64,000 nucleotides of DNA, taken from the IMG/VR virus record IMGVR_UViG_2926493430_000001, positions 3,023 to 67,022 of that record. The stretch is one strand, 5' to 3'. This stretch comes from a virus (taxonomy: Duplodnaviria; Caudoviricetes). Under the pieces are notes generated by a model that was given only the letters and a program-made list of their open reading frames with translations, had not been told where the DNA came from and did no database searches. Positions 6,757 through 22,727 of this stretch are shown here, one piece after another (within the stretch, counting starts at the first letter, position 1; each line of letters begins with the position of its first letter). A program made the position numbers and the translations under genes.

Positions 6757-8013
6757 TTATTTCTTTTTTGGTACCTTTCGTTCACTTGCAAAAATGGTCC
6801 GTTTCACTCCGCATTTAAATTGAAATTCAACCATCCGCTCTTTGTAGATAATGCCTCGCTCAACTGTATTTTTGAAAAGCTTCACATCAAAATCCTCTAG
6901 TTTCTCAGTTTCTTCTAATGAGTCTAGGAAGGATTGGAATTGCTTTTCTAAATAAAGTTGTTCTTGCATGTTGTCCTCCAGGCTGTCCCGCTCCTGTTGA
7001 AGAATCTCTTGTTCGTAAATCAAGTGCCTCAATGTTGCGTCGTAGATGGCGTCGTTTGTCGTAGACTCCTTTGCAGCCAAATCACTTATGCGGTCAGCAA
7101 TTGCCTCAATTTGTGTATTCAACTCTTCCAATCGTTGCTGTTCCGACGGCAAGAGGGATGCCTTTTTAATGGCTTGTTCCGCTTCTTGCTTTACTTCATC
7201 AAGGTTTTCTTTCAATTCCCTCATTATTTTCATGAAGGCATTTTCTAAATCCGTTTCTTGGACATAGCTTGTTTTACAGCCCTTGTAGTCTGGATCTCTT
7301 CCTGCGCTCACTCTGCATTGCCAACCAGAAATGTAATACTTCTTCCCTTTCCTGCTTGAGGTCATCCTTCTTCGTATGACCGGCCTTCCACATTCCCCGC
7401 AAAAGAATTCGTTGGAAAATGGGCTAACTCCACTATAGTGTTGCCGATACTTTTTATCTGGGTCCCGCATCATCAAACTTCGCCTTTTCATTTCTTGCTG
7501 AGCTGCTTCGAATGTTTCCTCGCTGATAATGGCTGGGTGGGTGTTCTTAACGAAATATTGCGGTTGAATATCTGTGTTGCGTACCCTTTTATGCGATAAA
7601 AAATCGAGCGTGACGGTCTTCTGTGCTAAGCAATGTCCTTGGTACTTCTCTTGTCTCAAGATTTTGTAGACCGAATCTCCCGTCCACGTTTTATTTCCCT
7701 TCCCTGTCTTTAACCCATCTCTCATTAAATCTCTAGCAATGCTTGGACAACCTTTTCCTTCTAAAAACTCTCGGAAAATTCTCCTAACCACCTTTGCCTG
7801 TTCTTCGATGATGACTATTTCTCCATCCTCAGTTGTGTCATAACCTAGGAAAAACGTGGTTGGCATATGAACTATTCCTTGTTGAAATCTCTTCTGTACT
7901 CCCCATTTTGTGTTTTCACTTACGCTACGGCTTTCTTCCTGTGCCATCGACGATAAGATGGTTAAGAAAAGCTCTGACTTTGAATCCAGTGTGTCGATAT
8001 TCTCTTTCTCGAA
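6757..8013 (-). pseudogene. 3' part of the interrupted serine recombinase gene (FEKENIDTLDSKSELFLTILSSMAQEESRS...)
   Basis: Frame extends upstream of the ORF-track Met (7947) to the core repeat at 8006-8013; lacks the catalytic Ser region. Confidence 0.93.
8006..8013. repeat. Satellite att core TTCTCGAA, left copy
   Basis: Identical to 22321-22328; coincides exactly with the recombinase breakpoint. Confidence 0.9.
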
Positions 8014-8129
8014 CCGTAAAAAGTAGTTTCGTAGTGTTTAAGAACGTGCCTGAAACCCGCATAAAATCGGGGTTTGTTGAAAGTTGATTGTGTATCGTAC
8101 ATTTTCGTTTTGGTCTTTATTGCAAATTA

Positions 8130-8147
8130 AAACACCGGATAAACACC
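8130..8147 (+). promoter_or_regulatory. Putative integrase arm-type sites (AAACACC x2, 11-bp period), left end
   Basis: The same pair with the same 11-bp period occurs at 22239-22256. Confidence 0.6.
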
Positions 8148-8272
8148 AACTATTTCTCTTAAAGTACACTTTTCTATAAAAAATGTGCTGCAAGGGATTT
8201 TTTAGCCTTACAGCACACTCGATTTTGCGTAGTGTACCCGCTTGGAGCACACTAATCAAAATATTTAAATAT

Positions 8273-9010
8273 CTAAATTTCTATAATCAAAGCCGCATGA
8301 TCTGTCTTGTCATTGTTTAATAAATATGAATCTATACGTATACTATTTAAACATTCGTACAATGATGGGGACATAATTGCATAATCAAGGCGTCTTCCTT
8401 TAATATGTGTCATCGTTGAGTTTGGGTAGCCTTTTTCCAACCAAGCATCTTTAGCATTTAATGCCAATAGTTGTAAATACTTTTTCTTTTGTTCTGTCCC
8501 CAAATCGTATACATTATAATCCCCAATAATAACAAGTTTTTGTCCTTGCTTTTCTTTATAGAAGTCAATTAATTCCTCCCAAAAGTTATTATCATAAGTT
8601 GGTGGAACATGAACACCGTAAACGATACAATCTGCTACTTTTATAACACTAGCTCTAAGAGTTTTGTTACTTTTTGAATTATGTGGATTTACAAGTTTTG
8701 TGTATAACAGTTCTTTCTTTACAAACATAATAGTTATGGACGGATTCTTAAAATTATTTTTTTCATAAGGGACTATCTCATAATCAACTTCTTTCATACA
8801 ACCAATAAACTTTTCTGTAATTTCTGTGTTTAATTCAAATTCATGTAGTATTACAATAACTGGCTTCTCTTGTTGTATATATGCAAGTATTTCAGTAGCT
8901 TCACTAGTTTTATCAAGTGTACCCCATTCTGAATATTTATTTTCCTTCTTGTATTGTTCTTTAGATTTTAAGCCACCAAAGTTATTAATATTTAAACTTA
9001 ATATTTTCAT
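8273..9010 (-). CDS. Endonuclease/exonuclease/phosphatase (EEP) family protein
   Basis: MKILSLNINN start, IIGDYN, RLDYAI and terminal TDH motifs; GGAGG before ATG 9010. Confidence 0.85.
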   Translation of the reverse strand: MKILSLNINNFGGLKSKEQYKKENKYSEWGTLDKTSEATEILAYIQQEKPVIVILHEFELNTEITEKFIGCMKEVDYEIVPYEKNNFKNPSITIMFVKKELLYTKLVNPHNSKSNKTLRASVIKVADCIVYGVHVPPTYDNNFWEELIDFYKEKQGQKLVIIGDYNVYDLGTEQKKKYLQLLALNAKDAWLEKGYPNSTMTHIKGRRLDYAIMSPSLYECLNSIRIDSYLLNNDKTDHAALIIEI

Positions 9011-9063
9011 TAGTATCCTCCCGTTTATATCTCCATTATCCTTAATTCTACTAATCTTCATTT

Positions 9064-20987: not shown

Positions 20988-21116
20988 AATATTATTCTCC
21001 TATTCTCCATAATTGTAAAATCTATGGATCGTATGGGTTTGGTTTAAAGAAATGAGTTTTTAAATCAAAAAACACACCTATTATTAGCCATTCTACCCTT
21101 CATTCTTCAATAAGCT

Positions 21117-21926
21117 TTATCTTATTTCAGTAGAAACTGGCTCAAGCAAGAAAAGCCCTGAATTTTCATTGTATTCTTCCACTACAGCTGTAATATGAAG
21201 ATTTTGTCCCATACCAATAGTATCTGGGATGTTAGAACCAATAAGATTTAAATCAGAAACAATATTTACATCCTCGAACTGAAAATTAGGTCCACTAAAA
21301 GTTGTTTCACCATAATCACCAGCTAAAATTAAAATGTTATATCTTGTTTTATAATTCCCATGTTGCATCATATTTGCGATATATCCATCAAATTCAATGG
21401 TTCTACCTGCATATTTTTTTGCAAATTCATCGATGATTTGGTCAGCTTCATTCTTCACAGCCAAGACAGCTGCAAAATCTTCATTATTTTCTACTGTTAA
21501 TATTTCCTGAGCGCTTTCGGCAGATGTATCATTGGTTGATTGGGCATCTGTCTCAGAACTGTTTTCATTGGCAGGTTCGGTGTCACTTTTCTCTTCTTCT
21601 GAAAATGTGTGATATGTAATGACTACTTCTACGTCGTTAGAGTACCATACATCTGGCGAATAATCTTTATCTCCATCAACCGAAACAGATTCAACTTCGC
21701 CATCTTTTGTCAACCAACCTGTTATTAAATCTTCTAGCTTTTCTGTTTTAATGTTCTCGAATCCTTTTCCCTTAAAATCATTAATAACCTCTTGGTAATC
21801 TCTACCTTTTTGTATGCTTGAACCTGATGGTGTTTTTGCTTCACCTTCATGTCCATTTGAGTCTCCAGAACACCCTACTAATGTAATAATAATACAAGCA
21901 ATAAAAATACTAATTATATTTTTCAT
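21117..21926 (-). CDS. Lipoprotein
   Basis: MKNIISIF...LVGC lipobox; GAGGAG RBS; acidic linker. Confidence 0.75.
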   Translation of the reverse strand: MKNIISIFIACIIITLVGCSGDSNGHEGEAKTPSGSSIQKGRDYQEVINDFKGKGFENIKTEKLEDLITGWLTKDGEVESVSVDGDKDYSPDVWYSNDVEVVITYHTFSEEEKSDTEPANENSSETDAQSTNDTSAESAQEILTVENNEDFAAVLAVKNEADQIIDEFAKKYAGRTIEFDGYIANMMQHGNYKTRYNILILAGDYGETTFSGPNFQFEDVNIVSDLNLIGSNIPDTIGMGQNLHITAVVEEYNENSGLFLLEPVSTEIR

Positions 21927-22238
21927 TTTGCTCCTCCTCGTCCTCATACTTAAATCATACCAGAAGTTAAATAATTTTTGTTACTATTTTCCATACTTAT
22001 ATCAAACTGATTTTGCGTAGTATTTAGGCTACTTCGTAATATAGAATTACTTCTAAATCTCGTTCGATTGTTGAACCAACCTACCCTCTTCATTTTATTG
22101 TGGACATTTTAATAATTAGTTGTTTTCACAAAAACAACCTATACTAATAGAAGGAAATAAGGACACTTCCAAAGAGCTAACAGAAAGTGTGGAAAGATCT
22201 GCTTTGTATGATATTATTCAGTTTTGTTTACTATCTTT

Positions 22239-22256
22239 AAACACCAAACAAACACC
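22239..22256 (+). promoter_or_regulatory. Putative integrase arm-type sites (AAACACC x2, 11-bp period), right end
   Basis: Matches the pair at 8130-8147. Confidence 0.6.
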
Positions 22257-22265
22257 AAACCAAAA

Positions 22266-22727
22266 TCAAAATCGCATAAAATCGCGTGTTTTCGCCTTTT
22301 GTGCCGTATCAGTGTTAATGTTCTCGAAAAAAATTCCAATCCCTAGACCCTTGAGCTCACGGATATATTTCAAACAGTCCAGAGTGTTTCTTGCAAATCT
22401 AGAAATGCTTTTAGTCAAAATATAATCAATTTTCCCTTCAATACAATCGTTTATCAAACTTTGAAATCCTAGCCGCTTCTTTGTTGAAGTTCCGGATATC
22501 CCTTCATCACAGTATACTTTTACCAACTCCCAGTTTGGATTGCTTTGAATAAATTCCGTATAGTGAGCAACCTGGAGCTCGTAACTTCCCGCTTGGGATG
22601 GGTCATTTGTAGAAATCCTTGCATATGCGGCTACCCGCTTTTTTACACCGCCTGCATTGGGTTCATTTCGTCCTGTCCTAACTTTTGCAGGTATAACCCT
22701 AACTTTAGGTGAACGTATTTCACTCAA
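22266..22727 (-). pseudogene. 5' part (catalytic domain) of the interrupted serine recombinase, fused to a short satellite-derived tail
   Basis: AAYARIST and KSISRFARN motifs; recombinase similarity ends at GIFFE, at the TTCTCGAA repeat. Confidence 0.93.
22321..22328. repeat. Satellite att core TTCTCGAA, right copy
   Basis: Identical to 8006-8013. Confidence 0.9.

Follow-up and report, generated by a model that had tools for sequence, protein, structure and literature searches.

Phage-inducible chromosomal islands (PICIs) that reside inside a gene of their own helper prophage have been described. The available text of Tommasini, Mageeney & Williams (2023, PMC10111431) reports 491 further helper-embedded PICIs (HE-PICIs) at 14 sites with integrases of one clade, and places all of these sites in late (virion) genes of enterobacterial lambdoid prophages. 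Such elements are also mentioned in the accessible part of PMC10085698. In cos-type staphylococcal pathogenicity islands (SaPIs), as presented in the available sections of PMC5052747 and PMC8569155, small heads are obtained with the helper terminase and HNH protein and the capsid homologue Ccm. Here we analyse a 14,307-bp insert that splits a large serine recombinase (LSR) gene, which we call B, beside a complete prophage. The insert lies in a stretch of 64,000 nucleotides (the window; positions 3,023 to 67,022 of the IMG/VR record IMGVR_UViG_2926493430_000001, Caudoviricetes).

We consider it highly probable that this insert (8014-22320) represents a cos-type, PICI-like satellite whose family is widespread in Bacillota, that the primary site of the family is the FEKEN codons of LSR genes and that the satellite is embedded in its likely helper. 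A preliminary description of the same DNA had called the arrangement an undescribed system, which is too strong, and its statement that PICIs usually integrate apart from the helper overlooks the HE-PICIs: to the extent that PMC10111431 was available, the helper-embedded arrangement itself is already known.

The interrupted recombinase gene and its target codons

B is split by the insert and the feature is well delimited by the following elements.

22321..22727, minus strand: 5' half of recombinase B (Resolvase profile positions 1-108, E 1.8e-24)
6757..8013, minus strand: 3' half of recombinase B (418 codons, open; starts FEKENIDTLDS)
22321..22328, minus strand: attL copy of the 8-bp core TTCGAGAA
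8006..8013, minus strand: attR copy of the same core (codons F-E-K)
8014..22320: satellite insert, 14,307 bp (14,315 bp including one repeat)

The 5' half encodes the first 133-135 residues, that is, the catalytic domain as far as ..GIGIFFE. It starts with a TTG codon served by an AGGAG-type ribosome site, 15 nt past the stop of the neighbouring recombinase gene A and, with the satellite in place, its frame extends 17 codons into the satellite before stopping. The 3' half includes Resolvase positions 100-143, a Recombinase domain, a Zn_ribbon_recom domain and a coiled-coil tail. On the plus strand the core reads TTCTCGAA. Removing the insert and one octamer in silico joins 399 and 1257 nt into 1656 nt that encode 551 amino acids (aa) with zero internal stops; the preliminary description had arrived at the same gene from the halves 22727-22321 and 8013-6757 (1656 nt, a 551-aa frame, no stop), and its coordinates and arithmetic were right.

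Rebuilt B is colinear with intact homologues of 553-556 aa. It is 88.7% identical to P0121 (554 aa; 548 columns, 2 gaps) and 81% identical to both P0122 and P0126. Close homologues occur in 6 of the 269 genomes of the window's bacterial family (G000 counted). A search for the intact gene, which had been proposed as a check, was successful: intact B alleles, that is, empty sites, are present in the same bacterial family at L109, L112, L113, L114, L116 and L117, and the 3' half of the L109 allele is 96% identical to B.

Public sequencing runs, including the source run X1, were consulted as Logan contigs rather than reads. In two other public runs (X3 and X10) there are contigs whose match to the window ends at base 8013, where an unbroken 5' half takes over. 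X3, from a sediment metagenome, has 1 mismatch to the window over 7460-8013. In X10 the free end corresponds, as reverse complement, to the 30 nt that lead up to the FEKEN codons in the intact L109 allele. A further run (X2, compost metagenome) has a near-identical composite spanning both junctions. Given these three runs, the boundary is exact and the insertion is polymorphic in nature.

Sequence comparison strongly supports the conclusion that the integrase of this satellite belongs to a family that targets the FEKEN codons of LSR genes. Among 8000 candidates scored, 771 are related at E <= 1e-30, and the best 120 of these 771 are 54-97% identical. Named sources include Marinilactibacillus, Heliorestis, Oscillospiraceae and 'Caudoviricetes', as well as Bacillus massilionigeriensis, Acetoanaerobium, Alkalibacterium and a metagenome-assembled genome of Haloplasmataceae. 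The organisms named all belong to the Bacillota or Mycoplasmatota. The order of the family genes (amidoligase-like, capsid, primase, repressor, integrase) is kept in relatives.

It had been suggested that this integrase family be sought at the FEKEN codons of other serine recombinases. It is found there at 4 genome loci, 8 of 9 IMG/VR loci and 45 of 80 metagenome loci (a further 19 of the 80 are too short to tell). At the genome loci (L018, L019, L024 and L027) the 3' half of an LSR gene begins at the FEKEN codons just past the integrase: the element arm ...TTTTGACGG is followed by TTYGARAARGAG.., read as FEKE(N/A)(I/L)NT. The recombinases targeted are 30-52% identical to B. In the eight IMG/VR loci the 3' half lies 165-291 nt past the integrase; the ninth locus ends 18 nt past it.

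Among 56 junction strings, 46 are unique and give the consensus ...G|(C/T)T(C/T)GA(G/A)AA(A/G)GA(A/G)AAYAT, in which L144 and L153 are slightly off register and L019 is mis-anchored, its true junction having been read separately. The conserved residues of the target are (F/L)EKENIxT in the catalytic domain of the LSR. Because the first junction base is often a C from the element, crossover probably occurs within about TCGAGAA. Far junctions in five IMG/VR records read ..TTCGAG|AAGAAAGACTTC... The 8-bp repeat alone could be due to chance; in-register restoration of B together with 46 unique junctions at the same codons in relatives could not.

Two side observations concern the B gene itself. 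Its halves have discordant relatives: identity to L109 is 65% for the 5' half and 96% for the 3' half, while L113 and L116 are closer to B in the 5' half (79%) than in the 3' half (54-55%). This discordance breaks at the satellite attachment site, hinting, at the level of sequence, that recombinase halves are shuffled there. In addition, a 91%-identical B orthologue (L110; G242:C4:20001-24254) is interrupted at the same FEKEN codon by different, AT-rich DNA bearing GGTGTT-type repeats. The L110 contig includes no integrase of the satellite's family, the sole weak match in that genome being on another contig, and a second type of element may use the same FEKEN site.

The satellite, its presumptive helper and the recombinase array

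The features of the insert are as follows.

9064..10431, minus strand: tyrosine integrase, 455 aa (Phage_integrase, E 3.9e-29), co-oriented with B
8273..9061, minus strand: cargo gene between integrase and attR, with a weak endonuclease/exonuclease/phosphatase (EEP)-like match
10537..11124, minus strand: cI/XRE-type helix-turn-helix repressor (HTH_3), 195 aa
11812..14073, plus strand: primase-helicase (NrS-1 pol HBD, D5_N, DUF5906, Pox_D5; phrog_1829)
14073..14375: iterons GTGACAGTAGTGACAG, direct and inverted copies, just past the primase gene
14649..15554, plus strand: HK97-fold capsid paralogue, 301 aa, aligning to residues 94-394 of the 397-aa prophage capsid
15609..16280, minus strand: amidoligase-like gene (phrog_2443), conserved across the satellite family
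17465..17550, plus strand: cos-like motif common to satellite and prophage
18007..21947, minus strand: variable cargo (a 368-aa protein with no function assigned, an SPFH+SHOCT protein, a bacterial PH domain protein and a DUF4839 protein)
22236..22258: AAACACC-type repeats near attL, with a partner copy near attR

By its gene make-up the insert is a PICI-like satellite of the cos type. It has an integrase at one end beside att, its own primase with adjacent origin-like iterons (presumed to be the replication origin) and, as a small hijacking module, a capsid paralogue and a cos-like motif, and its 14,307 bp fall within the PICI-like range of about 10-18 kb. None of the 15 satellite frames of at least 100 aa encodes a terminase, portal, tail or lysis protein. 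The tyrosine integrase and the paired repeats near both ends (8127-8149 and 22236-22258) noted in the preliminary description are present; the AAACACC-type repeats are candidate arm-type integrase sites. Pfam matches were absent from seven small satellite frames, including any to an excisionase, and the small rightward frames at 11277-11791 match no family. The integrase lies 1 kb from attR, compared with about 0.2-0.3 kb in most relatives. The cargo gene in this interval has an EEP-like match (E 3.8e-4, 20.7 bits) below the Pfam cut-off of 24.5, and is lacking from the compost satellite, which skips 8257-9045. A PADLOC analysis of 8 satellite and 2 prophage-end proteins gave no nameable defence system, only a weak GajA-like match of the DUF4839 protein (E 1.9e-6). 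When the integrase was compared with 50,697 deposited phage genomes a single 33% match was obtained, and no sequenced phage isolate in that set carries the satellite, a result that says nothing about packaging.

The presumptive helper and the recombinase genes beside it occupy much of the remaining window.

24589..57953, minus strand: presumptive helper prophage body with a complete siphovirus gene set
35879-37072, minus strand: prophage capsid, 397 aa
45332-45736, minus strand: prophage HNH gene
45234-45320: prophage cos-like motif, beside the HNH gene
56077-57524, plus strand: prophage repressor and ImmA-like protease
22743..24350, minus strand: intact serine recombinase A, 535 aa, directly upstream of B; its own FEKED site TTCGAAAAAGA is unoccupied
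3009..6689, minus strand: recombinase C-D, a single 1226-aa frame downstream of B; both FEKE sites are unoccupied

The prophage encodes endolysin, holin, tape measure, capsid, protease, portal, TerL, TerS, HNH and methylase proteins as well as replication genes. The claim that the insert is satellite-like and lies in a recombinase gene of a complete prophage, its plausible helper, is borne out by two links between them. Aligned over 301 columns, the satellite's capsid paralogue and the capsid protein of the prophage share 47% identity, and the paralogue is without the N-terminal ~90 residues of the latter (scaffold-less). In addition, a 33-nt cos-like pattern, within a colinear motif of ~85 nt, occurs only at 17509 (satellite) and 45279 (prophage); none of 100 shuffles reached two matches. 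We infer that the shared motif is a cos site, and on these sequence links the prophage is plausibly the satellite's helper.

The insert could also be a decayed prophage, or an unrelated integrative island that fell by chance into a recombinase gene. This would be compatible with the several genes to which no function is assigned, and dependence on a helper is a deduction. We nevertheless regard it as very improbable: the same compact gene set of 14-15 kb recurs in relatives with integrases only 56-58% identical, and a replication module of its own with origin-like iterons, a lone capsid paralogue and a helper-type cos motif all fit a hijacker better than random decay.

The same composite structure is seen in other phages, in support of a satellite. 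All five IMG/VR records examined whole (G006-G010) contain an LSR 5' half (profile positions 1-103/106), an insert of 14-15 kb with a second capsid-family gene, and the 3' half. Four of the five have an intact LSR gene immediately upstream of the interrupted copy, and in G007, G009 and G010 the recombinase genes come after holin homologues. The phage flanking the insert in G008 is related to the window's prophage (TerL 72%, portal 63% and capsid 66% identical; TerL, portal, protease and capsid span 50-72%) and also has tape measure and endolysin genes, the split gene coming after the endolysin. Cargo of the G008 satellite differs, with methylase-like and helicase-like genes. One IMG/VR record rated 100% complete contains a 15-kb satellite.

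We had considered G008 as an excised composite in virion form. This was rejected as its right flank is non-phage (SUKH/Tox-GHH genes, two C5 methylases, an IS110 transposase and an LlaJI-type restriction system), hence G008 is a prophage fragment; neither it nor the other four records bear on excision.

In the window the recombinase array follows the prophage lysis genes in the order A, split B, fused C-D, all co-oriented and tightly spaced. C-D is an uninterrupted natural tandem fusion with two Resolvase, two Recombinase and two zinc-ribbon matches, and three other genomes of the bacterial family (L109, L110, L111) share its first 476 residues at 93-98% identity. Elsewhere the split unit is usually the outermost: of 25 unique loci whose sequence extends 3 kb or more beyond the junction, only 5 have another recombinase gene downstream.

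The surroundings of the array and prophage provide further side observations. To the left of the array (1-735, minus strand) there is a truncated B-like 3' part, 85% identical to residues 137-418 of the B 3' half, and beyond it another fused recombinase pair runs to the contig start (G000 C2:31-2853). The truncated copy is abutted at ~672-712 by TCTATATTTTGCGTATTTTTATCCATCCAGCCTCACGGCG, a second copy of which is on contig C34. This same end adjoins recombinase genes, at other positions, in related genomes (L111, L115, L118 and L119). The TCTATATTTTGCGTATTTTTATCCATCCAGCCTCACGGCG sequence might mark an end of the prophage itself, inserted in a recombinase gene that was already resident, or might stem from a recombinase-mediated rearrangement. 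Between the array and this element end, two frames of 450 aa and 189 aa (872-2886, minus strand) have no Pfam or PADLOC match. On the other side of the prophage a GalE-type epimerase gene (58103-59050, minus strand) lacks its first ~80 residues (Pfam profile from position 81) and is preceded by an apparent transposase end, and because of these two features we take the right flank to be rearranged.

Tyrosine integrases exchange strands across an overlap of 6-8 bp, and excision restores the target. By analogy, satellite excision, rebuilding of B, replication from the iterons and cos packaging should all occur here. As long as the satellite is resident, recombinase B could not be made. An integrase-mediated crossover within ~TCGAGAA would excise the satellite and rebuild B; after induction the satellite would replicate from its own origin, the helper TerS/TerL/HNH machinery would cut it at its cos copy, and it would be packaged in heads shrunk by the scaffold-less capsid paralogue. 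Smaller heads are suggested because the satellite is about one third of the helper's length. As the landing site travels on the helper, the satellite would find a site in any suitable lysogen and remain linked to it.

Exceptions and rival readings

Homologous satellites at unrelated sites had been named among the observations that would count against the proposal. Of 61 informative metagenome loci, 45 are in LSR genes, and the other 16 are elsewhere, at core-like look-alikes. Several points weigh against the view of the locus as an embedded satellite with a FEKEN site. The 16 exceptional metagenome loci have no LSR 3' half despite at least 1100 nt of downstream sequence, although one counted among them (L188) may only have cargo between integrase and site. 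Three genome loci (L017, L020 and L023) end in non-recombinase DNA, and the L017 integrase is 97% identical to that of the window. The IMG/VR and metagenome sets overlap (identical integrases form 10 groups), and sequences that are related do not count independently. No excised circle, rebuilt B gene or packaged satellite was seen, and the contigs of source run X1 show the integrated form only, with no joint skipping or going back at 8013/22321 (contigs drop rare variants). Among 36 non-duplicate interrupted 3' halves, 12 are no longer open for 370 codons. Finally, we infer helper dependence from gene content, and we assign the array to the prophage, the ends of which are undefined, on the grounds that it adjoins the lysis genes and that G007-G010 are arranged likewise.

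Since 16 of 61 metagenome loci and three genome loci are elsewhere, specificity for the recombinase site is a preference and is not absolute. Sites outside recombinase genes are in chromosomal DNA: two related contigs have theirs in a flagellar switch gene, and others have MBL-fold, SLH, LDH and LysR genes as neighbours. Their sequences are core-like, as in ..CTTGAGAATGAAGAAATAGAT.. and, in the flagellar switch gene, ..GAGAATGAAGAAATAGAT... A quick tree of 48 unique integrases was built with support from the Shimodaira-Hasegawa-like approximate likelihood ratio test (SH-aLRT) only; it covers loci whose downstream DNA was long enough for labelling, and integrase matches of at least 400 aa free of stops. 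The 36 LSR users and the 12 others are intermixed, the latter being scattered among the former (8 changes), at times within 1-3% divergence. These scattered positions and the core-like sequences indicate that the recombinase site is primary and the others are secondary look-alikes.

The possibility that the non-recombinase loci are circle (attP) forms was rejected: downstream, similarity to relatives stops at the junction, and in no case does the flank correspond to the far end of a different satellite.

Some of these loci deserve separate mention. The satellites of two metagenome contigs (L154 and L192) occupy the same look-alike ..EEIDALGEIGNI.. in a CheC/FliN-type flagellar switch gene; their hosts are related, with flanks 75% identical over 4.8 kb, and their integrases are close to recombinase-targeting ones. 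The satellite at L017 (Bacillus massilionigeriensis, G001), with proteins 80-97% identical to those of the window, adjoins non-recombinase DNA. Its left end was searched for in G001 and not found. An attL-type arm with core TTCGAGAA (L028) is present in the same genome; it was rejected as the far end of this element because it is 1.17 Mb from that genome's integrase. The arrangement could reflect a large rearrangement or a relic.

One account of why an LSR gene is used is that the FEKEN codons serve as a dock, being the most conserved DNA in a gene of the right phages, and that the interrupted unit is dispensable; the insertion would then serve linkage and site availability rather than regulation of the helper. 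The motif is targeted in genes that overall share no more than 30-52% identity, chromosomal look-alike sites are used by integrases closely related to these, one third of the interrupted genes are decayed, and spare units are available, both in the array and in the form of the intact upstream LSR gene in 4 of 5 IMG/VR records. This leaves unexplained, however, why only B is occupied when A, C and D have similar sites, and, where they can be read, both halves are still intact in two thirds of the split genes. We consider it a credible explanation, a little less likely than not.

The state of the split genes is itself informative. Twenty-four of the 36 interrupted 3' halves are open for at least 370 codons, which fits either recent insertion or re-use after excision. 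From the 12 that are not open it follows that some satellite copies are stranded in decaying genes. In addition, 26 of the 120 best B homologues are without a catalytic-domain annotation.

Re-use after excision is what would be expected if the satellite gated its helper, as the preliminary description proposed. B would then be needed for helper excision and re-integration, the insert would be polar on C-D, and the prophage would be locked until the satellite leaves, giving the satellite a head start. B is certainly split, and A, B and C-D are co-oriented at tight spacing (with the B start 15 nt past the A stop). The open 3' halves (24/36) agree with it, as does the positional conservation of serine-integrase triplets in streptococcal integrative and conjugative elements (ICEs), which suggests, in the part of PMC4701971 available, that each member matters. 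Against this, the three other LSR units of the array (A, C and D) are intact with equivalent unoccupied sites, which could make B redundant; recent insertion would leave 3' halves open just as well; and in the published helper-embedded case, as told in the accessible text of PMC10111431, the whole composite is excised first and the satellite later. A promoter and terminator scan of 6600-22800 remained near expectation (50 promoter-like sites against 45.7 expected, 9 terminator-like against 10.8) and says nothing on polarity. Gating of the helper in this way is doubtful.

A broader scenario can be drawn in which the satellite has no fixed chromosomal address and the helper's recombinase gene is a portable landing site, helper excision and integration being held hostage until the satellite exits, with crossovers at the site possibly shuffling recombinase halves. 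In its entirety we judge this speculative and unlikely. If true, a portable landing site would explain the near-identical integrases in different Bacillota orders, and the satellite would take its hostage by splitting the recombinase between the catalytic core and the DNA-binding half.

Embedding of a satellite in its likely helper, which we continue to favour, is of interest for several reasons. Satellites shape the conflict between phages and bacteria, and carry defence and other cargo. Embedding in a recombinase gene would be a way to hold satellite and helper together across hosts, and raises the question of parasite control over the helper's exit from lysogeny. Split genes for '396-400-aa recombinases' in Bacillota, and 'complete' contigs in viral catalogues, may hide such composites. 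Serine integrases also serve in genome engineering, a field to which an element that naturally recognises their coding sequence is of some interest.

Comparison with described systems

Elements that interrupt host genes offer one parallel. With skin and SPbeta-type intervening elements, excision restores the interrupted gene. SaPIs occupy chromosomal sites and are not known to reside in the helper.

The phage-like island SpyCI in mutL of Streptococcus pyogenes similarly splits a gene that is restored by excision, acting as a switch (PMC4129442, in the part available). The targets of SpyCI and of the skin and SPbeta-type elements are host genes with a phenotype at the level of the cell, whereas the gene split here is part of a second mobile element.

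ICEs with serine-integrase triplets provide a precedent for a mobile element that inserts into a gene of a different one (Ambroset et al. 2016, PMC4701971). The accessible portion of that paper describes both tandem arrays acting as one integration module, comparable to A, B and C-D, and site-specific insertion into traG of another element. These ICEs differ in being conjugative, and their serine integrases are the actors, whereas here a serine recombinase is the target.

Packaging is best compared with cos-type SaPIs such as SaPIbov5, which carries Ccm. Like the window's satellite, and as far as the sections of PMC5052747 and PMC8569155 at hand extend, they have no terminase of their own, a copy of the helper cos with the helper HNH gene beside cos, and a capsid homologue that changes head size. 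In the window's satellite the cos copy is a candidate, and size redirection by the paralogue is a prediction from gene content.

The HE-PICIs remain the closest relatives in lifestyle. The available text of PMC10111431 shows that they share with the window's satellite a tyrosine integrase, a position inside a gene of the helper prophage and co-orientation with that gene. The gene is rebuilt only by satellite excision, the site recurs in many relatives, and many HE-PICIs carry a capsid gene. They are found in Enterobacterales with late genes as targets; here the hosts are Bacillota and the target is a serine recombinase gene. Unlike the HE-PICI sites described there, one conserved protein motif provides the site across very divergent genes. 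The words 'recombinase' and 'Firmicutes' occur nowhere in the text of PMC10111431 that was available, and a literature search, mostly without subscription journals or supplementary site tables, returned no paper on a satellite that targets a recombinase gene. Helper-embedded satellites described so far split only virion genes in enterobacteria, and a Gram-positive family aiming at a phage-integrase motif would mean that the embedded lifestyle arose independently. Compared with these systems, what appears to be new here is the target, namely the helper's own recombinase gene, together with the host group (Bacillota) and the integrase family.

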